DNA of 64,000 nucleotides. It comes from an uncultured Clostridia bacterium (GTDB lineage Bacteria > Bacillota > Clostridia > Christensenellales > UBA1242). Below the pieces are notes generated by a model. The model worked only from the letters and a program-made list of their open reading frames with translations. It searched no databases and was not told where the DNA came from. Positions within the stretch are counted from its first letter, which is position 1, and every line of letters begins with the position of its first letter. Location of the stretch: NCBI GenBank assembly GCA_944380265.1, contig CALWGY010000002.1, positions 3,556 through 67,555 of the forward strand, given 5' to 3'. The translations under genes were made by a program, and so were the position numbers. Below are positions 223 through 50,818 of this stretch, piece after piece.

Positions 223-286
223 GTAAAATTTTATTGTTTATAATACATTAATGAATTTTTTATGCTATACTGTATTTGAGGTTTAT

Positions 287-679
287 ATGAAAGAAATTAA
301 GGTAGTTGCAGGAATTATTGAAAATAATGGTAAAATTCTTTGTATGCAAAGAGATAAAGGAAAGTATGATTATGTCTCTTTTAAGTGGGAATTCCCCGGT
401 GGCAAAATTGAAGAGGGTGAAACTAATGAAGAAGCACTTAAAAGAGAATTGTTAGAAGAAATGGATTTAGACGTTATTGTTGGAATTCATTTTTGTGATG
501 TTGAATATACATACCCAGATTTTAAACTTACCATGTTTTGCTACAAATGCAATACAAAGGATCTTGATTTTAAATTAAATGTGCATAAAGATTACAAATG
601 GCTAGAAAAATCTGAATTAAATATTATTGACTGGGCTCCTGCGGACATGATAATTGTAAAGAAGCTAATGGAGGAGTAA
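287..679 (+). CDS. NUDIX hydrolase (MutT-like nucleoside triphosphate pyrophosphohydrolase)
   Basis: ORF 251..679 contains the Nudix box GGKIEEGETNEEALKRELLEEMDL. ATG 287 is preferred because an SD-like tgaggt lies 5 nt upstream. The stop is 2 nt before the next ORF. Confidence 0.8.
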   Translation: MKEIKVVAGIIENNGKILCMQRDKGKYDYVSFKWEFPGGKIEEGETNEEALKRELLEEMDLDVIVGIHFCDVEYTYPDFKLTMFCYKCNTKDLDFKLNVHKDYKWLEKSELNIIDWAPADMIIVKKLMEE

Positions 680-681
680 TA

Positions 682-3600
682 ATGAATTTTGGACTTTATG
701 AGCAAATTATTAATAAAGCTTTAAATGATATTGATGAAAATGATATTCAAGTTGAAAAAAGAAAAATAGATAAAGAAAATGTGCCTAGAATATTATCTAA
801 TTATTTGTCTGAAGTTTTAGAAAAAGGTTTAAAAGATTTATCTGAGAATAATTACACAATAGAAGAACAGTTAAATTTTTGCAATTATATTATTAATAAA
901 ATAAAAGATGAAACTAAAGATGAATACTATTCAAGTCAACTAATTTCGAAAGATGCCGAAATGTTATATTCTTTAATGAATAAAAAGAATAGTATAAGAG
1001 TATTAAAAACGGATTATCCAATAAGACCAAACTATTCTATTGCAGAGCCTTTTGTGTTTACTGGTGCAAACACTGAAATTCAATTGCTTAGTGAATTAAA
1101 AAAAGAAATTTCTAGTTGTGATGAAATAGATTTTATCGTTTCATTTATCAAATGGAGTGGAATAGTAAGGCTTTTAGATGAATTAAAAGAATTTACCGAC
1201 AATGGTGGTAAATTAAGAATTATAACAACGACTTATACTGGAGCAACTGAAGCAAAAGCCATTGAACGATTATGCGAACTAAACAATACTGAGATAAAAA
1301 TATCATATAATACAAAACAAACGCGACTGCATGCTAAAAGCTATATATTTAAAAGAAAAACTGGTTTTTCTACCGCTTATGTTGGTTCTTCTAATATTTC
1401 AAGTGCAGCTCTTACAAGCGGAACCGAATGGAATGTTAAAGTTACCGAAAAAGAGATGAAAGATGTTTATGATAAAATATGTGGAACCTTTGAAGTATAT
1501 TGGAACAGTGAAGAATTTGAAAAATATAATAAAGAAGATAATGAAAAATTAAGAAACAATTTATATCAAGAAAAGTCTCCAAAATCATTTAATTTAGAAG
1601 AATACAATTTTGATATTATTCCATATCCTTATCAAGAAAGAGTTCTTGAAAAACTTAGAGTAGAAAGAGAAAATCGCGACAATTTTAGAAACTTAGTAGT
1701 TGCAGCTACAGGAACAGGCAAAACGGTTATGTCTGCATTTGACTTTAAACGTTATCTACAATCACAACATGGAAGAAAAGTCAAATTTTTATTTGTAGCT
1801 CATAGAGAAGAAATTTTAAAACAAAGCTTAAAATGTTTCAGAGGGATTTTAAGAGATAATAATTTTGGAGAATTAATGGTTGGTGGAATTTTACCCAAAA
1901 GTATTGATAATTTGTTTGTATCAATTCAAACATTTAATTCTAAAAAGTTATATGAAAAATTAGCACCTGATTTTTATGATTATATTATTGTTGATGAATT
2001 TCATCACGCGGCAGCAGAAGGATATCAAAAGTTATTATCACATTTTAAACCAAAAATTTTACTCGGACTTACTGCAACACCAGAAAGAATGGACGGAAAA
2101 GATATTTTACAATATTTTGATGGTAAAATATCTGCTGAGATTAGACTTCCAGAGGCAATCGATAGAGGTTTACTTGTACCATTTACTTATTTTGGTATTT
2201 CAGATGAAATAGATTTAAGTTCTGTAAAATGGACTAGAGGTGGATATGATATACAAGAACTTAGCAATGTTTTATCATTTAATAAAGCAAGAGCAATGAC
2301 TGTTTTAAAATCATTAAATAAATACCTTAATGATATTGATACAATAAAAGGATTAGGGTTTTGTGTTAGTCAGCAGCATGCTCAATTTATGGCAAAAGTG
2401 TTTAATGACGCTGGAATACCATCTATCGAACTTGATAGCAACTCTTCAAAAGAATTAAGAGAAAATGTTAAAGATAAATTAGTAAAGGGCGAAATAAAGT
2501 TTATATTTGTTGTGGATTTATATAATGAAGGTGTTGATATTCCAGAAGTAAATACGGTTTTATTTTTAAGACCAACAGATAGTTTAACAGTATTTTTACA
2601 ACAATTAGGTAGAGGTTTAAGACTCTGTAAAGGAAAGGATTCTTTAACGGTTTTAGATTACGTTGGACAAGCTAATAAAAAGTATAGATATGCCGATAAA
2701 TATCAAGCTCTTCTAGGTGTTAATGCAATGTCTGTTTCTACCGAAATAAAAAATGGATTTCCAAATCTTCCAAAGGGCTGTTTTATAACATTGGAAAAGA
2801 AAGCCCAAGAATATGTATTAAGCAACATTAAGCAATCGTTTAATAATAAAGCAAACTTTATTGAAAAATTTAAAAATTTTGAAAGTGACAGTGGACTCGT
2901 CCTAAATTATAAAAACTTTTTTGAGTATTATAATATAAATCCGGCTAAATTATATAATATAGGATTATCTTTCACTTGGCTACAAAATTCAAATGTTATT
3001 GATGATGATAAATTTTTAACATTTTTATCTAGAAGTACACAAATAAATTCTTCTGCGTGGATAAAACGACTGTTAGATTTACTTCCAAAAATAAAAAATG
3101 CTAAACATATTGAATTAACAGAATATGATAAACGTTGTCTTTTAATGTTTCATTATACTTTTGAAACTCAAAAATCCCCAAAAGATTTAGGATATAATAA
3201 CGTCATTGAAAGTATAGAACAGATTGTAAATTCAGCATACTATGAAGAAATAATAGAACTATTAAATTATAACTTTTCAAAAATAGACATAGTTAATAGC
3301 CAGTTAATAAAATTTAGTAATTGTCCTTTGGAATTGTATTCTGCATATTCTAATGCGCAAATACTTGCTGGTTTTGGTGAATATACAGAAAGTAGATATT
3401 TTCCACTAACATCAGGTGTGTGGTATATAGAAAATGAAAAAACAGATATATTTTTTGTAACCTTAAACAAATCTGAAAAACATTATGCACCTGAAGTTAA
3501 ATATGAAGATTATTCCATTAACGATGAATTATTCCATTGGCAGTCACAAAATAAAACGGATATAAATTCGCCAACGGGACAGCGTTATATAAATCATAAA

Positions 3601-3798
3601 AAAACTAACAATAATATATTATTGTGTGTTAGAAATTATAGAGCGAATGAATATGGTAATACAGAAAATTATTCTATTTTAGGTTATTGTGATTATGTTT
3701 CACACGAAGGATCGAGACCTATTTCAATTATATGGAAAATGCATAACAAAATACCTGCAAAGTTTATTGAAAAAACTAGTAAATTGATGGTTAATTAA
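682..3798 (+). CDS. HKD (PLD-family) nuclease fused to an SF2 DEAD/DEAH-type helicase, with a DUF3427-like C-terminal region
   Basis: 1038 aa. Single HKD motif: LHAKSYIF...VGSSNIS. Helicase motifs: AATGTGKT (I), DEFHH (II), TATPER (III), QQLGRGLR (VI). The C-terminal ~350 aa (..HWQSQNKT..) resembles DUF3427 as I recall it. GGAGGAG SD lies just upstream, inside the NUDIX 3' end. Confidence 0.8.
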   Translation: MNFGLYEQIINKALNDIDENDIQVEKRKIDKENVPRILSNYLSEVLEKGLKDLSENNYTIEEQLNFCNYIINKIKDETKDEYYSSQLISKDAEMLYSLMNKKNSIRVLKTDYPIRPNYSIAEPFVFTGANTEIQLLSELKKEISSCDEIDFIVSFIKWSGIVRLLDELKEFTDNGGKLRIITTTYTGATEAKAIERLCELNNTEIKISYNTKQTRLHAKSYIFKRKTGFSTAYVGSSNISSAALTSGTEWNVKVTEKEMKDVYDKICGTFEVYWNSEEFEKYNKEDNEKLRNNLYQEKSPKSFNLEEYNFDIIPYPYQERVLEKLRVERENRDNFRNLVVAATGTGKTVMSAFDFKRYLQSQHGRKVKFLFVAHREEILKQSLKCFRGILRDNNFGELMVGGILPKSIDNLFVSIQTFNSKKLYEKLAPDFYDYIIVDEFHHAAAEGYQKLLSHFKPKILLGLTATPERMDGKDILQYFDGKISAEIRLPEAIDRGLLVPFTYFGISDEIDLSSVKWTRGGYDIQELSNVLSFNKARAMTVLKSLNKYLNDIDTIKGLGFCVSQQHAQFMAKVFNDAGIPSIELDSNSSKELRENVKDKLVKGEIKFIFVVDLYNEGVDIPEVNTVLFLRPTDSLTVFLQQLGRGLRLCKGKDSLTVLDYVGQANKKYRYADKYQALLGVNAMSVSTEIKNGFPNLPKGCFITLEKKAQEYVLSNIKQSFNNKANFIEKFKNFESDSGLVLNYKNFFEYYNINPAKLYNIGLSFTWLQNSNVIDDDKFLTFLSRSTQINSSAWIKRLLDLLPKIKNAKHIELTEYDKRCLLMFHYTFETQKSPKDLGYNNVIESIEQIVNSAYYEEIIELLNYNFSKIDIVNSQLIKFSNCPLELYSAYSNAQILAGFGEYTESRYFPLTSGVWYIENEKTDIFFVTLNKSEKHYAPEVKYEDYSINDELFHWQSQNKTDINSPTGQRYINHKKTNNNILLCVRNYRANEYGNTENYSILGYCDYVSHEGSRPISIIWKMHNKIPAKFIEKTSKLMVN

Positions 3799-3837
3799 AA
3801 TAAGTGATAATAAATTATTAAATAAAGCATAACATCT

Positions 3838-3871
3838 AAAAACCGTAATGAAATACTATTACGGTTTTTTT
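3838..3871 (+). terminator. intrinsic terminator after the nuclease-helicase gene
   Basis: 11-bp perfect stem aaaaccgtaat / attacggtttt, 8-nt loop, then a T-run. Confidence 0.65.
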
Positions 3872-4408
3872 GTACAAGAAAAGAATAGAGCAATAGACTC
3901 TATTCTAAATGCAATGGAAAAAGGAATAATAACATCGTCAACACAAGAAAGACTTATGAAACTTGAAAACGAAAAAGCAATACTTGAAGATAAAGTTGAG
4001 TATGAACAAAACCATCAAATAAAACCACTAGAAAAAGAACAAATTGTGGATTTTTTAAAAGTATATGCAAGAAAACAGTTTGATAACAAAACAGATAAAA
4101 ACGAGTTCTTTAACAATTTTATTTTGAAAGTGTTACTTTATGACGACAAAATTACAATAGTTTACAATACAAGTTTAAACCCAGCAGAAGAAAAATATAG
4201 CAGTCCAAATGATAATGATGATAACAATGACAATAGTAACAATGGAACGACAATTTATAAGAAAGAAATTGAGATTTCAGACGATGAAAATAAGGACGAA
4301 GCGTCCTTGCGTAAACTAAAAAAATTGCCGTTTGAGTTCAAACGACAATTGTTTGGCGGAGAGTTAGGGATTCGAAACATAACTAATATTAAAAAAACAA
4401 CGAAATAA
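3848..4408 (+). pseudogene. relic of a large serine recombinase gene (C-terminal tail only)
   Basis: EKNRAIDSILNAMEKGIITSSTQERLMKLENEKAILEDKV...NNFILKVLLYDDKITIVYN matches the conserved C-terminal coiled-coil tail of large serine recombinases. There is no catalytic N-terminal domain. The nominal start lies inside the preceding terminator hairpin, and the 3' end reads through the attL core. Confidence 0.5.
4352..4376. repeat. attL core: 25-bp copy of the tRNA-Ser 3' end
   Basis: tttggcggagagttagggattcgaa is identical to 23072..23096. Only the last 22 nt of the tRNA plus 3 nt downstream are present here. Confidence 0.85.
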
Positions 4409-4426
4409 AGGCAATTTCTAATTTTT

Positions 4427-4447
4427 ATTCTACTCACATTCTACTCA
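4427..4447 (+). promoter_or_regulatory. putative arm-type recombinase binding sites (P' arm): ATTCTACTCA x2 at 11-bp period
   Basis: attctactca c attctactca lies about 50 bp from the att core. The same doublet occurs at 12989..13009 and, as attctactca a attctactcg, at 22966..22986 in the opposite arm. Confidence 0.4.
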
Positions 4448-4455
4448 ATAAAATC

Positions 4456-4490
4456 AAAAAACAAGGGTAAATTTTAACCCTTGTTTTTTT
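4456..4490 (-). terminator. bidirectional intrinsic terminator ending the leftward prophage operon
   Basis: Stem aaaaaacaagggt / acccttgtttttt with an 8-nt loop, flanked by A/T runs on both sides. The duplicate is at 13018..13052. Confidence 0.6.
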
Positions 4491-4494
4491 AAAT

Positions 4495-4770
4495 TTACAA
4501 CCACAATTTAAAGCACGAAAAAACACTCCAAACGTTTAAACCAAGTAATAAAATTGAAAATGCTAAGTCTATATAATTAAAGTTTACACTGCTTTTTATT
4601 GTTAATGTAACACTTGATATAATGACCATAAAAGCAAGTATTAACGCAATTATTCCATAAATCAAAAAATTTGTCCAAACATCTATTTTATAACTTAACC
4701 ATAGAGAAACAATAGTTAAAACTAATAAAAAGATATATGTAAAAACTCTATTTAAAATATTATCATTCAT
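4495..4770 (-). CDS. small three-TM membrane protein (prophage)
   Basis: 91 aa with three hydrophobic segments. Last gene of the leftward operon. Confidence 0.6.
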   Translation of the reverse strand: MNDNILNRVFTYIFLLVLTIVSLWLSYKIDVWTNFLIYGIIALILAFMVIISSVTLTIKSSVNFNYIDLAFSILLLGLNVWSVFSCFKLWL

Positions 4771-4778
4771 AAAATCAC

Positions 4779-5852
4779 CTACGCAATATGTGAGTGTTTA
4801 TACATTTTTAATGAAACATTTCCGCCAACAAAAATACCGCCAAATGTATTTTCACCATCACCACTTAAATATTCCCAACGATAAGAACCAGAAATTAAAA
4901 ATTCAATATCATCATCATCGATAATTGTTCCATAATCTACCAAACGAGTTCCTAACAATGTTATGCCATCAACATCATAAAAACTAACTAAACATTTTTC
5001 AATTTCATAAACAGCATAAAAAGTTGTATCATCATTAATTTGAACATCTGACAAATTATCAATTATATCAACATTGTTTAAAGACCAGCCTTTAAATATA
5101 TAACCATCTTTTGTTGGTGGAATTACATTTTCATTTAAAGTTTTTCCTTTTAACAAATCAAAATGTTTAAACTCTTCATTATCAACAATAAATTTTACGC
5201 AATTAAAATTTTCTAACACATCATCTTCATTAATAGGAATATCTTTAACAGGCTTAATTTCAATTTTAAAACCATTGTTATTAAAGTAATCATTCCAATA
5301 ATTAACGGCTTTTGCTCCGCCAGTTGTTGTGATATTTAATCTTGTTGATTGTTTATAAAAAACTAATTTAATATTTAAAGTATCTTTAATTAATTCTGAA
5401 TAATTATCATCATAAAAAACATATGTATAATTAACATCAACAAAATCAATTGAAGAATTAATAATATTTGTTGGAGTATCATTAACTAAAATTATATAAC
5501 TTGTATTTTTGCTTAATTCCAATGCTTCATTTTTAACAATTGTTAAATCATATTTATTTTCTTCCGCAGTTGACTTTAAAACAAGATTATTTAATTTAAA
5601 AGTCATTTCGTTAACTTTAATATCTGGTTTAATAACAGAAGATATTACACCATAAACACCACCACTTGCACTATAATATTTATTAATTTCTATACCAGCA
5701 AGAAAAGTAACAAATATGTACAAAACACCTATACAAGTAAACAAAATATATCTAAAAGTTGTAGAGCGAATAAAAATAATTAATAATATTAAAATTATTA
5801 CAAGTAACAAAATATCATAAATTATTGAAAAATCAAATAACCATTTAAACAT
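4779..5852 (-). CDS. membrane-anchored protein with a C-terminal Listeria-Bacteroides (Flg_new-type) repeat; candidate adsorption protein
   Basis: ORF 4779..5885. Start at MFKWLF (5852) is preferred because an SD-like gggggtgg lies upstream and it removes the overlap with the upstream gene. N-terminal TM helices are present. PPTKDGYIFKGWSLNN...TTFYAVYE fits the GYxFxGW repeat. Confidence 0.6.
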   Translation of the reverse strand: MFKWLFDFSIIYDILLLVIILILLIIFIRSTTFRYILFTCIGVLYIFVTFLAGIEINKYYSASGGVYGVISSVIKPDIKVNEMTFKLNNLVLKSTAEENKYDLTIVKNEALELSKNTSYIILVNDTPTNIINSSIDFVDVNYTYVFYDDNYSELIKDTLNIKLVFYKQSTRLNITTTGGAKAVNYWNDYFNNNGFKIEIKPVKDIPINEDDVLENFNCVKFIVDNEEFKHFDLLKGKTLNENVIPPTKDGYIFKGWSLNNVDIIDNLSDVQINDDTTFYAVYEIEKCLVSFYDVDGITLLGTRLVDYGTIIDDDDIEFLISGSYRWEYLSGDGENTFGGIFVGGNVSLKMYKHSHIA

Positions 5853-7086
5853 TTTCGCCACCCCCAACATCAATTGAAAAACCATTTAAAATTTCATTAT
5901 AAAGTTGAAAACCACAATAAGTTTTTTCATTTGGTGCATTTACATTAATGTTATGTTTTAAAAACTCTTCATAATCTATATAAACATTCAATTTAATTAC
6001 ATCTTTATAATTAGAATATTTTGATAAAAAAGAGTCATCTAAAATTAAATCATATGTTCCATCAACATTGTCAATTAATTTAAAATTATTAGTGTTAACA
6101 TCAACTATTGAACGACCAATAAAATAATTATCTTCAACAGAATTTTCAACAAGATAATTAGGTGATGCATGCAACAAACCAAACAAACTATCGGAAGAAC
6201 TTTTTGCACCATCTTCACTAATTTTTATTGATATAGCATAATAATTCTTAACATGGTTAACCACTTTTGTACTATCTTCCATTGGCATTTCATCAAAAAC
6301 ACCATCGCCTTTATATTCGTAATAATCAAATAAATCGGCAAAATCAAAAACAATCATATTGTTAGTTCCATATTTTAGAGTTCCACAAGATTTTTTCAAC
6401 AAAAAACTTAAATAATGAACATCAAAATATGAATAATATGATGCATAATTTTGAACGCCCCATAACACGTTAAAATCGTAACCATCTTCAAAATCAGCGA
6501 CATGTGATAAATCATTCATAGGTGTGTTTAGACCCTTAAATTTCATACCATAAACTTCATTACCAATTTCAATTACAAAAAAATCATCTATTGTTATTTC
6601 ATTAGTTGAATAATATGAAATTCCAGAAATATTATCAACAGTATAACAATAACTAGTACCATTTACACCAGGACTAAAAGACCCCCAGTAAGAATAGTAA
6701 TCTTTTGCGTTATACCAACCACCAACATGTTTAATTTTTTCGCCCTTTACTGCATTGTTATAATGATAAGCATAATCAACAAAACCATTAACATCTTTTG
6801 AAATATATTGAAAACCTTTTGAAGAAATAGTTGTTTTGTTTTGGTCCGACAAACTATTTAATTTTATTTCAAACATTTCAAACCCATTTTTATTTTTGTT
6901 GGTATAATAATTAAATTCAATAATTGGTTTAACAACAGAACCATCTTCTGATGTTTGCAAATCTACATAAAAAGCATTATTAACGTTTTTTTCAGGTGCA
7001 AAAAATAAAATGTACAAATACCAAAAATTAACAATTAGTGTTAATGCAAAAGTGCAAATTCCAATTATAATTAATGTTTTTTTCAT
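5845..7086 (-). CDS. secreted or membrane-anchored prophage protein, function unknown
   Basis: 413 aa. N-terminal hydrophobic signal/anchor MKKTLIIIGICTFALTLIV. No recognisable motif. Confidence 0.6.
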   Translation of the reverse strand: MKKTLIIIGICTFALTLIVNFWYLYILFFAPEKNVNNAFYVDLQTSEDGSVVKPIIEFNYYTNKNKNGFEMFEIKLNSLSDQNKTTISSKGFQYISKDVNGFVDYAYHYNNAVKGEKIKHVGGWYNAKDYYSYWGSFSPGVNGTSYCYTVDNISGISYYSTNEITIDDFFVIEIGNEVYGMKFKGLNTPMNDLSHVADFEDGYDFNVLWGVQNYASYYSYFDVHYLSFLLKKSCGTLKYGTNNMIVFDFADLFDYYEYKGDGVFDEMPMEDSTKVVNHVKNYYAISIKISEDGAKSSSDSLFGLLHASPNYLVENSVEDNYFIGRSIVDVNTNNFKLIDNVDGTYDLILDDSFLSKYSNYKDVIKLNVYIDYEEFLKHNINVNAPNEKTYCGFQLYNEILNGFSIDVGGGENV

Positions 7087-7094
7087 ATAACCCC

Positions 7095-8069
7095 CTAAAA
7101 AATGTTATCAATTTCTTCTTTTAACATTTTTTCTTCTTCTTTATTTAATTTAATAAAATCAGAACGATACAAATCTTTATAATTTTCACGTTCAACATAA
7201 GTTCCAGTTTTATCAATTCGCAATATTGTTTTAATGCGTTCGTTAAACGCATTATAAATTATAGGTTTATTTCTTTGCTCATCTTTATAAATTTCATTTA
7301 ATGGCAAATTTGAAATTATATAAACTTTTGTATAACATGCAACTTTATTCGCATAACGTGCAGGTAACATAAAAGGGTAAACATCTAAAAGTCTATTCAT
7401 AAGTTCAATTTTAAATTGTCCACTAAATTCATCTAACACCAATATGTCTTCATTTTTGTAATTATCAAAAGTAGAATTGTTATAAACACTTGCATGATAA
7501 AATTTGCCAAAACCATATTTATCATAAACATAACGAGTTTTACCAGTTCGTGGTGGTCCATAAATAAAAGTAACATCAACATCACGATTTTTAATTAAAA
7601 ATTCAGAACTTAAATAATCTGTTCTAATCTTTTCAATTTTTGTTAAATTACTTAAATAAAGTTTAGGGAATAATCTAGCAAGTTCTAAATCAGTTGCACC
7701 ATTTTGAACTAGTTCAATAAAATTAGATATATCAGTCCTTGCTCGTTCTTCCGCAAAAGTTCCCAATTCATACGGACCACTTATTCTTGTTTCAGATTTT
7801 GTGCAATAATCACGTGCTTGTGCATTAGTTCCTTGAACTGGTTCAATATGTGCCGTTGGAAAGTAATTTTTTAATGTACTAAATCTTTTACCAACGTTAA
7901 ATATTAAAAATACTTGAAAATGTATTATTTCTTTTTCTTCACCTTTTTCACGTTGGAAAGCACAATATTTAAAGTGTTCTAATTTTTGAACATAATCAGA
8001 AAACTCATCATCACTTTCAGATGGATTATTTATTGTTAAAAACCATCTTCTTTTCATTGTATCAGTCAT
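7095..8069 (-). CDS. rep: rolling-circle replication initiator: HUH endonuclease + SF3 helicase (CRESS-DNA-virus-like Rep)
   Basis: Motif I WFLTINNP, motif II HFQVF, motif III YCTKSE, Walker A GPPRTGKT, Walker B ILVLDEF, motif C YIISN, all in the canonical order within 324 aa. Confidence 0.85.
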   Translation of the reverse strand: MTDTMKRRWFLTINNPSESDDEFSDYVQKLEHFKYCAFQREKGEEKEIIHFQVFLIFNVGKRFSTLKNYFPTAHIEPVQGTNAQARDYCTKSETRISGPYELGTFAEERARTDISNFIELVQNGATDLELARLFPKLYLSNLTKIEKIRTDYLSSEFLIKNRDVDVTFIYGPPRTGKTRYVYDKYGFGKFYHASVYNNSTFDNYKNEDILVLDEFSGQFKIELMNRLLDVYPFMLPARYANKVACYTKVYIISNLPLNEIYKDEQRNKPIIYNAFNERIKTILRIDKTGTYVERENYKDLYRSDFIKLNKEEEKMLKEEIDNIF

Positions 8070-8079
8070 AATTCACCCT

Positions 8080-8159
8080 ATGTTACACAGTAAAATAGCA
8101 TATGTTACAATTTTTTTTATTAAAAAATGGCTTAATATAGTGCTATGTTACGATGTTAC
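8080..8159 (-). repeat. four Rep-proximal iterons (GTAACAT on the rep-sense strand)
   Basis: ATGTTAC at 8080, 8102, 8145 and 8153 on the + strand. They lie between the origin hairpin and the rep start codon. The duplicate is at 16642..16721. Confidence 0.6.
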
Positions 8160-8199
8160 GCAGTTGGCTAAAAGGTAATACTATCTTTTAGCCAACTGC
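8160..8199 (-). promoter_or_regulatory. putative rolling-circle origin hairpin with a TAGTATTAC loop
   Basis: Perfect 15-bp stem gcagttggctaaaag / cttttagccaactgc. The 10-nt loop reads ATAGTATTAC on the - (rep-sense) strand. Predicted nick TAGTATT/AC between 8177 and 8176. Confidence 0.7.
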
Positions 8200-8227
8200 T
8201 AATTTTATAAAGTTTCAATTTGTAACC

Positions 8228-8260
8228 GCGGAACGGCACGCAGGCTTGTTGCCGTTCCGC
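8228..8260 (+). other. GC-rich hairpin (terminator-like, or a candidate complementary-strand origin or packaging element)
   Basis: 11-bp stem gcggaacggca / tgccgttccgc with an 11-nt loop, followed by ttgtttttt. It is strikingly GC-rich for this DNA. The duplicate is at 16790..16822. Confidence 0.4.
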
Positions 8261-8291
8261 TTGTTTTTTGCCTTGCAAGGTCAATGGTCAG

Positions 8292-49193: not shown

Positions 49194-50441
49194 TTATTTT
49201 AAAATAACTTTCATAAAGTTCTTTTTGCCTTTTTTAAGCATGCAAACTCCGTTTTCAAAGTTTTCTTTTGAAACTTTAAAATTAAAATCTTTTTGAGTTT
49301 CGCCATTAACAAGCACTCCGCCTTGTTCACACATTCTTCTGCCTTCGCTTTTTGAACTAACAAGTTTTGTGTTTGCAAGCAAGTCAACAAGTGAAATTGG
49401 AAGTTCGTTTAAACTAATTTTGTATGTTGGAACATTTTCCAAATTGCCTTGTCCGTTAAATAATGCCTTGGTTGCTTCTTCGGCAATTTTGGCATCTTCT
49501 TCGCCTCTAACAAATTTTGTTACTTCAAAACTTAAAACCTTTTTGGCATTAACAATGTCGGTTTCAACAAGTTTTTTAACTTCGTTCATTGGAATGTCGG
49601 TAAACAATGCAAACATCATTTCAACACAAGCATCGGGGGTTTGGTAAACACCCTGATAAAAGTCGTATGCCGAAATTTTGTTTTTATCAATCCAAATTGC
49701 ACCTTTTTCGGTTTTGCCCATCTTTTTGCCTTCTGGTGTTAAAAGCAGTGGGTTTGTTGCACCAATCAGTTGAACATCGGTGCCGTTTAAAAAGTTAAGT
49801 TTTCTTTGAAGTTCAACGCCGGCAACAATGTTTCCCCACTGGTCGCCACCGCCATATTGAAGTGTGCAACCATATTCGCGGTTTAAATGAACAAAGTCAT
49901 ATGCCTGCATCAAAATGTATCCAAGTTCAAAAAAGGTTAGTCCACCTTCTTCCAATCTTTTTGCGTAAATTTCGTTTGTAAGCATTCTGTTAACATTAAA
50001 ATGGACACCAATGTCACGCATAAAATCAATATAGTCATAGCCCTTAAACCAGTCGGCGTTGTTAACAATAATTGCAGGGTTGTCGCCATCAAAATCCAAA
50101 AAGATTTTTAAAGTTTCCTTAATTTTTTCAATGTTGTGGTTAATTGTTTCTTTTGTCATTAGTGGTCGCATTTCGCTTCTGCCGCTTGGGTCGCCAATGC
50201 CAGCAGTTGCACCACCCATAAGCAAAATAACTTTGTGCCCGGCTTTTTGAAATCTTCTTAAAATGCAATATGGAACACAGTGCCCAATGTGCAAACTATC
50301 CATTGTTGGGTCGCTTCCTTCATATAAAGTTATTGGTTTGCCACTTTCAAGTTGTTTTTTCAAACCTTCTTCATCTGTGCATTGATATAATAGTCCACGT
50401 TCCTTCAATATTTCATAAAGTTTTGTGTCGGTTTGCTTCAT
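49194..50441 (-). CDS. tyrS: tyrosine--tRNA ligase
   Basis: HIGH motif (SLHIGH), KMGKT (KMSKS-type), C-terminal S4-like domain. Confidence 0.95.
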   Translation of the reverse strand: MKQTDTKLYEILKERGLLYQCTDEEGLKKQLESGKPITLYEGSDPTMDSLHIGHCVPYCILRRFQKAGHKVILLMGGATAGIGDPSGRSEMRPLMTKETINHNIEKIKETLKIFLDFDGDNPAIIVNNADWFKGYDYIDFMRDIGVHFNVNRMLTNEIYAKRLEEGGLTFFELGYILMQAYDFVHLNREYGCTLQYGGGDQWGNIVAGVELQRKLNFLNGTDVQLIGATNPLLLTPEGKKMGKTEKGAIWIDKNKISAYDFYQGVYQTPDACVEMMFALFTDIPMNEVKKLVETDIVNAKKVLSFEVTKFVRGEEDAKIAEEATKALFNGQGNLENVPTYKISLNELPISLVDLLANTKLVSSKSEGRRMCEQGGVLVNGETQKDFNFKVSKENFENGVCMLKKGKKNFMKVILK

Positions 50442-50469: not shown

Positions 50470-50665
50470 TTAAAACAAAAAACGCACACGTCCATAAATT
50501 TTTAAGGACGAAGTGTGCGTTCGTGGTACCACCTTAATTTGTTTAAAAAATTAAACCTTCATTAAACTTTTTAACGTAAAAGCCAAACGTTTTGCTCCCA
50601 AAGTGTAATTCAAAACAAGTTATGGAAGTTTTTCAGCAACCAACTTCTCTCTAAATTTCATAATT
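50470..50665 (-). promoter_or_regulatory. T-box leader (Tyr specifier UAC) controlling tyrS
   Basis: Seen on the - strand: an AGAGAGA box, specifier loop GAAUUACAC, T-box sequence AAGGUGGUACCACGAA, and the terminator aacgcacac...gtgtgcgtt plus a U-run. Confidence 0.8.
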
Positions 50666-50818
50666 ATTGTTTCTACTGGTTTTTTGTTCATCGCAAAATA
50701 AAATTAACATCATACTACTAAACAAATTGCATTTTGTCAATAAAAAGTTAAAAAATAAATAATTTTGTGTTTAATTGACTATTTTATGTTTGTTTAGTAC
50801 AATATAATTACAAACTAT

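Follow-up and report, generated by a model that had tools for sequence, protein, structure and literature searches.

Genes of the integrated element

The DNA analysed here, referred to as the window, is a stretch of 64,000 nucleotides (nt) from contig CALWGY010000002.1 of an uncultured Clostridia bacterium. Positions 4495–7086 of the window hold three closely packed genes on the minus strand, p413, p357 and p91tm, which encode membrane proteins of 413, 357 and 91 amino acids (aa). They are the end of a rep-413-357-91 operon within an integrated element that also encodes a Zot-like ATPase (Table 1). The start of p357 overlaps the end of the p413 gene by 8 nt, and rep ends 8 nt before the p413 gene, at the spot occupied in relatives by a small gene for a protein with a single transmembrane (TM) segment. 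TM segments of the module proteins were called by simple hydropathy. All of the open reading frames (ORFs) named in the first-pass annotation of this DNA, which was made from the sequence alone, are present at the minus-strand places that it gave. It treated 4495–7086 as the structural module of the element, a range that covers only three of the module's genes.

Table 1. Genes and other features of the tandem elements, with positions in the window.
Feature	Position	Strand	Basis or remark
attR, copy of the tRNA-Ser 3' end	4355–4376	+	exact 22-nt repeat, 25 nt with flanks
Terminator-like hairpin after the p91tm gene, 13-pair stem and T tail	4456–4489; second copy 13018–13051	-	pattern scan
p91tm, 91-aa three-TM protein, last operon gene	4495–4770; second copy 13057–13332	-	three hydrophobic windows
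p357, 357 aa from the ATG at 5852	4779–5852 (368-aa ORF to 5885); second copy 13341–14414	-	two N-terminal TM segments
p413, signal-anchored all-beta 413-aa protein, family signature gene	5845–7086; second copy 14407–15648	-	one N-terminal TM helix
Rep, 324 aa, HUH endonuclease and SF3 helicase, pCRESS2-like	7095–8069	-	PF02407, E 5.5e-11; PF00910, E 4.6e-7
Origin stem-loop, nonanucleotide TAGTATTAC in the loop	8160–8199	-	read in sequence; ~100 nt upstream of the rep start
138-aa basic (+14) protein, probably coiled-coil, directly after the ATPase gene	8442–8858	-	
Stand-alone Zot-like P-loop ATPase, 275–281 aa, no TM segment	8862–9707	-	Walker A GNPGFGKT
Terminator hairpin 9841–9871 (12-bp stem) and ~140-nt non-coding stretch with two further hairpins	9700–9871	-	
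70-aa basic (+13) protein, 66 aa from the second ATG	9873–10085	-	
117-aa soluble, near-neutral (+1) protein, upstream of the ATPase region	10094–10447	-	
304-aa N-terminally anchored protein, probable coiled coil and C-terminal beta domain	10560–11474	-	weak coiled-coil family matches only
p91b, very basic (+14), beta-rich 91-aa protein, clade-specific	11474–11749	-	
cI-like helix-turn-helix (HTH) repressor	21311–21634	+	right-hand copy only; Pfam labels on identical L025 genes
Tyrosine integrase, 440 aa	21671–22993	+	right-hand copy only, adjoins tRNA-Ser; Pfam labels from L025
attL, partner of attR	23075–23096		inside the tRNA-Ser gene 23074–23161

The whole unit is present twice. Positions 4367–12399 recur without a single difference at 12929–20961, a repeat of 8,033 bp at a period of 8562 bp, and the segment 4367–23096 consists of two prophage elements in tandem. 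The right-hand element (12929 to ~23070) is an integrase-bearing prophage of ~10.1 kb. The left-hand element (4367–12928; 8,562 bp) is an integrase-less derivative, in which a 68-aa HTH gene (12738–12944) replaces the integrase-repressor block, and an attP-like junction with the core GGGATTCGAA is present at ~12925. The element is integrated at tRNA-Ser; the att repeat has two copies only in the window and none in shuffled sequence. The tandem pair is also found in the independent metagenome contig L025, while the related loci L026 and L027 carry a single copy. The complete identity of the tandem copies indicates recent activity of the element. Each copy has one origin (8160–8199 and 16722–16761), the two being in direct orientation. 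Rolling-circle replication from origin to origin could free an exact circle of 8,562 nt without excision, comparable to tandem CTXphi prophages.

No Pfam or PHROGs match was found for p413, p357, p91tm, p91b or the 70-, 117- and 138-aa proteins, except for a Listeria-Bacteroides repeat at residues 246–292 of p357 (PF09479, Flg_new; 28.1 bits against a cut-off of 27, E 2.3e-6). The same residues align to the internalin B (InlB) B-repeat in PDB (E 0.0046). With one repeat above the Pfam gathering threshold, and the repeat also present on homologues, p357 has the hallmark of the Flg_new/InlB B-repeat surface proteins, and its ectodomain is beta-rich. The adhesin-like repeat of the first-pass annotation is therefore well founded.

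For p413, tblastn returned no matches in 50,697 phage records and 72,556 plasmids. Its moderately confident AlphaFold2 model, built from 16 sequences (pLDDT 76.7, pTM 0.60), has a helix at residues 2–29 followed by an all-beta ectodomain. Foldseek gave no match to this model (best E 0.5 against PDB and 0.32 against BFVD), nor did the p413 family profile match any PDB sequence. These sensitive profile and structure searches with p413 turned up no ordinary coat or adsorption protein. The earlier statement that nothing beyond Rep and the ATPase resembles known virion proteins likewise stands in comparisons with Pfam, PHROGs and PDB sequences and, for the p413 model only, with Foldseek. The word-indexed homology search found 3 relatives for p357 and 2 for the basic p91b, too few for good models.

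The motifs of Rep (FLTINNP, HFQVF, YCTK and LPARYxNKVACYTKVYIISN) resemble, by eye, the pCRESS2 rows in the supplement of PMC6668415. Upstream of rep is a circovirus-style origin region (8060–8440) with four GTAACAT iterons downstream of the hairpin and AATGTGGTAA repeats upstream of it. The stem of the origin hairpin is a perfect one of 15 bp, scored as an 18-pair hairpin in the pattern scan. Hairpin and iterons are invariant in the four clade members described below, and the pairing of a second hairpin at ~8228–8259 is held in the clade member L033 through compensatory changes. An HUH Rep together with a nonanucleotide hairpin predicts a single-stranded DNA (ssDNA) intermediate. The first-pass annotation held that no gap in the unit was large enough to hide a coat gene. 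A gap of 373 bp does exist at 8070–8441; it contains the replication origin and not a gene.

The ATPase matches phrog_197, 'Zot-like toxin' (E 1.2e-6), and its homologue in the related locus L007 carries PF05707. Its closest annotated Zot is that of bajarodino virus 12 (tblastn E 1e-24, 31% identity), and tblastn against the phage collection gave three Zot matches only. The element therefore has the pI/Zot-family morphogenesis ATPase that is a criterion for Tubulavirales. No FtsK or single-stranded DNA-binding protein (SSB) family was matched among the ten proteins scanned.

The p413 family and its small membrane gene

In an exhaustive profile search over 1.84 billion representative proteins, the p413 family comprised 438 clusters (50% identity) at E <= 1e-3 and 347 at E <= 1e-10, where the word-indexed search gave 16 clusters. 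Nearly all members are full-length, at 400–470 aa, and 40 diverse members gave no Pfam or PHROGs matches. The term 'ORFan' used in the first-pass annotation is therefore correct in that the protein is unannotated, but not in the sense of unique, since the family has hundreds of metagenome members.

A total of 22 loci, window included, were compared from metagenomes and GTDB genomes. Their host titles are uncultured Clostridia, Christensenella, Bacilli and Lachnospiraceae. Homologues of p413 and p357 are adjacent in all 22, the latter varying from 210 to 680 aa. A Zot-like ATPase was found in 15 loci. Four of those without it (L003, L010, L018 and L022) have little sequence downstream of the 413/357 pair; in L011, L012 and L013 no Zot was detected despite ~10 kb of sequence. 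Reps of the window type are present in the window clade, L009, L014, L023 and L024, and in several other loci a ~350-aa protein with a weak HTH_36 match takes their place. This exchange fits the promiscuity for which inovirus replication modules are known (PMC6668415; PMC6813254).

The order in L007 begins with integrase and repressor, followed by genes for proteins of 136 aa, 350 aa (weak HTH_36 match; Rep candidate) and 62 aa. Then come a 65-aa single-TM protein, the 411-aa homologue of p413, a 673-aa p357 homologue and a 106-aa 3-TM protein, and the series ends with a 303-aa anchored coiled-coil protein, a 63-aa lysine-rich protein and Zot. Proteins of ~100 aa with 3 TM segments follow the p357 homologue in L003, L007 and L016; L014, L015 and L021 have genes for 3-TM proteins of about this size at other places. 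Very basic small proteins, histone-like and with a net charge of up to +35, are found near the ATPase in every lineage. One locus with 413, 357 and Zot genes, L021 (a 14,852-bp contig of a Bacilli metagenome-assembled genome), has a terminal overlap of 77 nt, which indicates a circular or tandemly repeated molecule.

Outside the window clade, 17 loci have sequence upstream of the p413 homologue, and in 16 of these a gene for a single-TM protein of 52–83 aa is located directly upstream of it. The exception is L039, in which small TM genes come after the p357 homologue. These small proteins have their TM segment at the N-terminus, followed by an amphipathic tail rich in tryptophan, and are of the size and TM content by which Roux et al. 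select structural candidates.

The window clade comprises four variants: the window, L026/L027, L033 and L037/L038. In the clade, rep ends 8–15 nt before the p413 homologue. In the unit, intergenic ORFs of at least 25 codons with a hydrophobic segment were absent, except for a 25-codon TTG ORF at 8387–8464. This ORF, in the origin gap, was considered as a hidden coat gene and rejected as its frame is broken in L033. A 122-aa hydrophobic ORF at 12631–12999 was also discarded, as it lies in AT-rich DNA on the strand opposite the 68-aa HTH gene. When all six frames were searched with a profile built from the small TM proteins of relatives, the sole match was a weak one to p91tm (E 0.0057), which is probably compositional. 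The ORF and six-frame profile searches thus agree with the first-pass annotation that the element has no pVIII-like gene. Nor is p91tm a fused or triplicated form of the small TM protein; the two have no significant similarity and L007 carries both genes.

The ratio of nonsynonymous to synonymous substitution rates (dN/dS) was measured against L033, with dS of 0.4–1.4 across genes. Every gene has a ratio below 1, indicating purifying selection and a clade that is not decaying. The slowest are those for a 97-aa protein (0.08), p91tm (0.084), p91b (0.105) and Rep (0.12), followed by those for the 117-aa protein (0.15), Zot (0.17), p413 (0.24) and the 138-aa protein (0.29), while p357 (0.53) and the 304-aa protein (0.73) are the fastest. 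No other membrane protein of the unit is as constrained as p91tm, with 90% identity to its homologue at a dS of ~1.1. Two of the three large anchored proteins (304, 357 and 413 aa) are the products of the fastest-evolving genes, with p413 intermediate, and the slowest rates are those of the small membrane and basic proteins. Fast evolution of p357 and the 304-aa protein is as expected of host-binding surface proteins.

Proposed assembly role of the membrane genes and alternative explanations

On balance, it is somewhat probable that the element is inovirus-like, temperate and Zot-dependent, that the genes at 4495–7086 are the adsorption and terminal part of its morphogenesis module, and that its clade has lost the candidate coat gene of the family. 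Together with the 304-aa gene, they would provide the membrane-inserted adsorption and terminal part of an ssDNA element from gut Firmicutes. Circular ssDNA would arise by rolling-circle replication that starts at the hairpin, and the ATPase would power assembly or export at the membrane. The p413 protein, p357 with its internalin-type repeat and the 304-aa protein would be shown on the particle and bind the host surface, as pIII does, and p91tm may have a pVI-like anchoring role. The clade would have lost the small TM gene when rep came to adjoin the p413 gene. Candidates for the coat in the clade would then be p91tm, a soluble basic protein, or something unrecognised.

This reading is supported by the conserved gene order of small TM protein, 413, 357, (3-TM), anchored coiled-coil protein, basic protein and Zot. 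Also in its favour are the link of the ATPase to Zot, the constant 413/357 pair and the size of the p413 family, the adhesin repeat and the dN/dS values, the replication origin, the integrase and att sites, the identical tandem copies, the terminal overlap of L021, and the precedent of Zot with a CRESS-like Rep in genomes classed as Inoviridae. Relatives such as L007 run from small TM protein through large adsorption protein(s) and 3-TM protein to ATPase, like gVIII-gIII-gVI-gI of Ff. The p91tm gene is placed where gVI would be, and the relatives' small TM gene stands to p413 as gVIII does to gIII. Ff virion proteins are membrane-anchored before assembly, and the large proteins of the module match this rule as all are membrane-anchored. 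In the relatives, position and anchoring fit those of adsorption proteins, but there is no homology to the pIII or pVI families. For the wider family, the comparison of loci tends to favour a filament-like logic. Since the window clade has no small TM gene, the argument from Ff gene order does not transfer to it. The element also differs from Ff: the proteins share neither sequence nor fold, their membrane topology is reversed, the window has no equivalent of gVIII, and a secretin is absent, as expected for a monoderm host.

Several observations weigh against an assembly role of this kind. A particle has never been observed. There is no small single-TM (pVIII-like) gene anywhere in the unit in any of the four clade variants. 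The module proteins match no known inovirus structural family, and the p413 model matches no solved or predicted viral fold. Every anchor is at the N-terminus, in contrast to the arrangement of pIII and pVIII. The small TM proteins of relatives match no coat family and are without a basic C-terminus, so their role as coat is positional only. The window ATPase itself has no PF05707 match at E <= 0.1, and its Walker B Asp is replaced by Met (FLMEGQ in the clade against FDEAQ in relatives); in the Zot of bajarodino virus 12 this region reads HLSEVQ. Other genomes that combine Zot with a CRESS-like Rep have ordinary pVIII-like genes and no 413/357 pair, which means that the module is not simply a 'Gram-positive version'. 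In IMG/VR, scans made singly with the ATPase and with p413 gave no match and a single relative was found; standard pipelines appear not to recognise these elements as viral.

Much of the element is shared with the filamentous phages of monoderm hosts (Tubulavirales; Roux et al. 2019; 'Clade-1' Zot phages, PMC8530359). These are alike in size (8.6–10 kb), in the stand-alone Zot-like ATPase, the exchangeable rolling-circle replication (RCR) Rep, the tyrosine integrase at a tRNA gene and the membrane-protein block upstream of the ATPase. The relatives alone also have in common with them the small TM gene before the longest membrane-protein genes. A stand-alone Zot domain is typical of Firmicutes inoviruses (PMC8530359), the inovirus protein families of Roux et al. 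include one RCR family that has an S3H domain (PMC6813254), and the combination of Zot with a CRESS-like Rep is already known. Unlike these phages, the clade has no 30–90-aa protein with 1–2 TM segments, so that nothing in the element corresponds to the alpha-helical coat protein of this size defined by Roux et al. 2019, and its structural proteins are unrelated to annotated coat or minor-coat families. The element itself departs further in having N-terminal anchors only, extra very basic soluble proteins and the replaced Walker B Asp.

The closest annotated Zot and Reps (35–37% identity) belong to bajarodino viruses 12, 13 and 30, which are classed as Inoviridae in GenBank, come from rodent faeces and have circular genomes of 7.8–9.8 kb. 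No p413 homologue was found in these three by tblastn at E <= 0.01, and the p413 family profile likewise found nothing in bajarodino virus 12 or in Dulem 59. Viruses 13 and 30 differ from the element in their ordinary pVIII-like genes (68 aa; 92 aa with signal peptide) and C-terminally anchored pIII-like proteins. As they are without the 413/357 pair, the structural module here is distinct and undescribed. Bajarodino virus 12 (L001) has, at 8035–9660, a gene for a 541-aa protein whose C-terminal TM segment and very Lys/Arg-rich tail recall an envelope spike with a DNA-binding tail, and its genome is also without a small coat-like ORF.

It is unlikely that the element is a non-virion integrative plasmid. 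The 413-, 357- and 304-aa proteins would then serve adhesion or exclusion at the cell surface, and the ATPase would act in DNA transfer or in partitioning as the element spreads by cell contact. The pCRESS2 elements (Kazlauskas et al. 2019, PMC6668415) are alike in their HUH and SF3 Rep with near-identical motifs and in tyrosine-recombinase integration, often at a tRNA gene, in Clostridia. Kazlauskas et al. call pCRESS elements plasmids without viral structural genes, pCRESS1–9 being described as integrated plasmids with no viral structural homologues, and some pCRESS1–3 elements carry surface-exclusion proteins (PMC6668415). The absence of a coat gene from the element, the Listeria-Bacteroides repeats typical of cell-surface proteins and the near absence of the family from IMG/VR all agree with such a plasmid. 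Typical pCRESS1–3 elements, read as plasmids, have an FtsK-like ATPase and an SSB, whereas the element here has Zot and the 413/357 module. Its Rep motifs resemble those of pCRESS2, but the FtsK-like ATPase and SSB that accompany such Reps, with no virus-like morphogenesis genes, are not its companions. Its ATPase is Zot-like, and Pfam, PHROGs and tblastn scans found no MOB protein, type IV secretion system gene, or relaxase other than Rep in the element. Zot/pI ATPases are not known outside the assembly of filamentous phages, which counts against a plasmid, as does the parallel between the relatives' gene order and that of Ff. One pCRESS2 element, HugHat-E1 of Hungatella hathewayi, itself has a Zot homologue with 100% HHpred probability (PMC6668415 supplementary table), so the 'plasmid' label of pCRESS elements was not tested against Zot.

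The lack of a helical TM coat gene could also be accounted for by an atypical, for example membrane-derived, particle, as proposed in the first-pass annotation. DNA (ss or ds) would be condensed by small basic proteins within a host-derived membrane. The 413-, 357- and 304-aa proteins would be spikes, the 3-TM protein an internal membrane protein and the Zot-like ATPase the counterpart of the pleolipovirus NTPase, an arrangement similar in principle to Plasmaviridae or Pleolipoviridae. The very basic small proteins near the ATPase in every lineage, the type-II anchoring of all of the large proteins with their big ectodomains, and the envelope-spike-like 541-aa protein of bajarodino virus 12 are in keeping with such a particle, which is nevertheless quite improbable. 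No plasmavirus or pleolipovirus record was returned from the phage collection by tblastn with p413 and the ATPase, and Foldseek against BFVD gave nothing for p413. The hosts (Clostridia, Christensenella, Bacilli and Lachnospiraceae) are expected to be walled, and budding is hard to picture in walled hosts. The basic proteins are poorly conserved, with one dispensable, and the Ff-like gene order is kept in relatives. A coat supplied in trans by a co-resident related prophage, in the manner of satellite filamentous phages and their helpers, is very unlikely. It would explain why the small TM gene found beside the p413 homologue in 16 of 17 other lineages is missing only in the window clade, and the integrase-less derivative in the window must indeed use functions in trans. 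Against such dependence, the clade has retained an ATPase, adhesins, a Rep and regulators of its own, all evolving under purifying selection (dS 0.4–1.4), and the four variants have the same gene set although they come from different samples. No second Zot element is present elsewhere within the 64-kb window, and no helper was identified.

It is distinctly improbable that the window clade makes infectious particles without a pVIII-type helical TM coat, for example coated by soluble basic proteins or by the 3-TM protein with export through Zot, or wrapped in membrane with the 413-, 357- and 304-aa proteins. If it does, such particles would be a new virion architecture on a filamentous-phage assembly motor, and at least some pCRESS2 'plasmids', which lie near the root of CRESS-DNA virus Rep evolution, would be viruses. 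The literature treats pCRESS2 elements as plasmids ancestral to CRESS-DNA virus replication modules, a picture that needs a footnote if particles form. Gram-positive gut filamentous phages are known almost only by their Zot gene and their particle proteins are uncharacterised. The p413 family (at least 438 clusters) with its repeat-bearing partner marks one such lineage and can be used as a search handle. A 'coat-less' clade under purifying selection poses the testable question of whether a pVIII-like coat is dispensable for Zot-driven export.

Remaining genes, conserved non-coding DNA and flanks

The 304-aa protein has the N-terminal TM segment given to it in the first-pass annotation, whereas the coiled coil also proposed there is suggested by weak family matches only. 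It is 49% identical to its L033 counterpart and is fast-evolving. Counterparts in relatives are 303–880 aa in length, and at least two of these (L009 and L007) have GYxFxGW-type repeats, as identified by eye. Three small, very basic soluble proteins had been described; the 70-aa protein, the second 91-aa protein (p91b) and the 138-aa protein are of this type, while the 117-aa protein is near neutral. Only two homologues of p91b were found among 5.8 billion clusters. It was modelled as a possible gpV-like SSB with an OB fold; the AlphaFold model is of low confidence (pLDDT 57), which makes its best fold match (E 0.066, TM-score below 0.5) uninformative. The 117-aa protein is 85% identical in L033, and jackhmmer connects it with a 101-aa protein of L009 at the same place before Zot. 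Proteins of 123–162 aa follow Zot in most relatives, as the 138-aa protein does here.

The internal terminator at 9841–9871 reported in the first-pass annotation is real, and the hairpin is conserved in relatives. Its comparison with the Ff terminator, which would make the preceding 70-aa gene the analogue of the abundant coat gene, does not hold. The homologue of this gene in L033 (7055–7300) has an in-frame TAA at codon 26, beyond which the codons are still alignable; a recently formed pseudogene or an error in the assembly may account for this. In L026, L027 and L037 the gene is swapped for unrelated genes of 120 aa and 82 aa. Judged from these replacements and the premature stop, the 70-aa gene is evidently dispensable, and the coat-gene analogy fails on this account.

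Terminator and non-coding stretch are kept in L033, L026 and L037 though the 70-aa gene is not. In L033 and L026, the ~140 nt between the hairpin and the ATPase gene have changed less than the genes on either side. As ssDNA, the stretch 9700–9871 folds with z = -4.05, and it matches no Rfam family. A reasonable guess is that the conserved stretch is a complementary-strand origin or a packaging signal. A hammerhead ribozyme was considered here on the basis of two CTGATGAG motifs and a CGAAAC, and was dropped as none was found in Rfam at E <= 10.

Contigs of ~8 kb with an identical 413-aa gene were considered as episomal circles. Their ends do not overlap, and they are as long as the 8033-bp repeat; they are therefore assembly collapses. 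At the DNA level, the unit matched phage records over 48 nt only, which is a chance match.

The flank beside attR (251–4408) resembles another island, with a NUDIX-like gene and a 1038-aa restriction/helicase protein. The same gene in L026 has RE_NgoFVII, PLD and SNF2-type domains. A 186-aa ORF in this flank runs into the att repeat; it has no family match and resembles, by eye only, the C-terminal part of a large serine recombinase. Further into the window, a T-box leader (105 bits) at 50501–50700 lies upstream of the tyrosyl-tRNA synthetase gene (49194–50441, minus strand) and represents ordinary host regulation.

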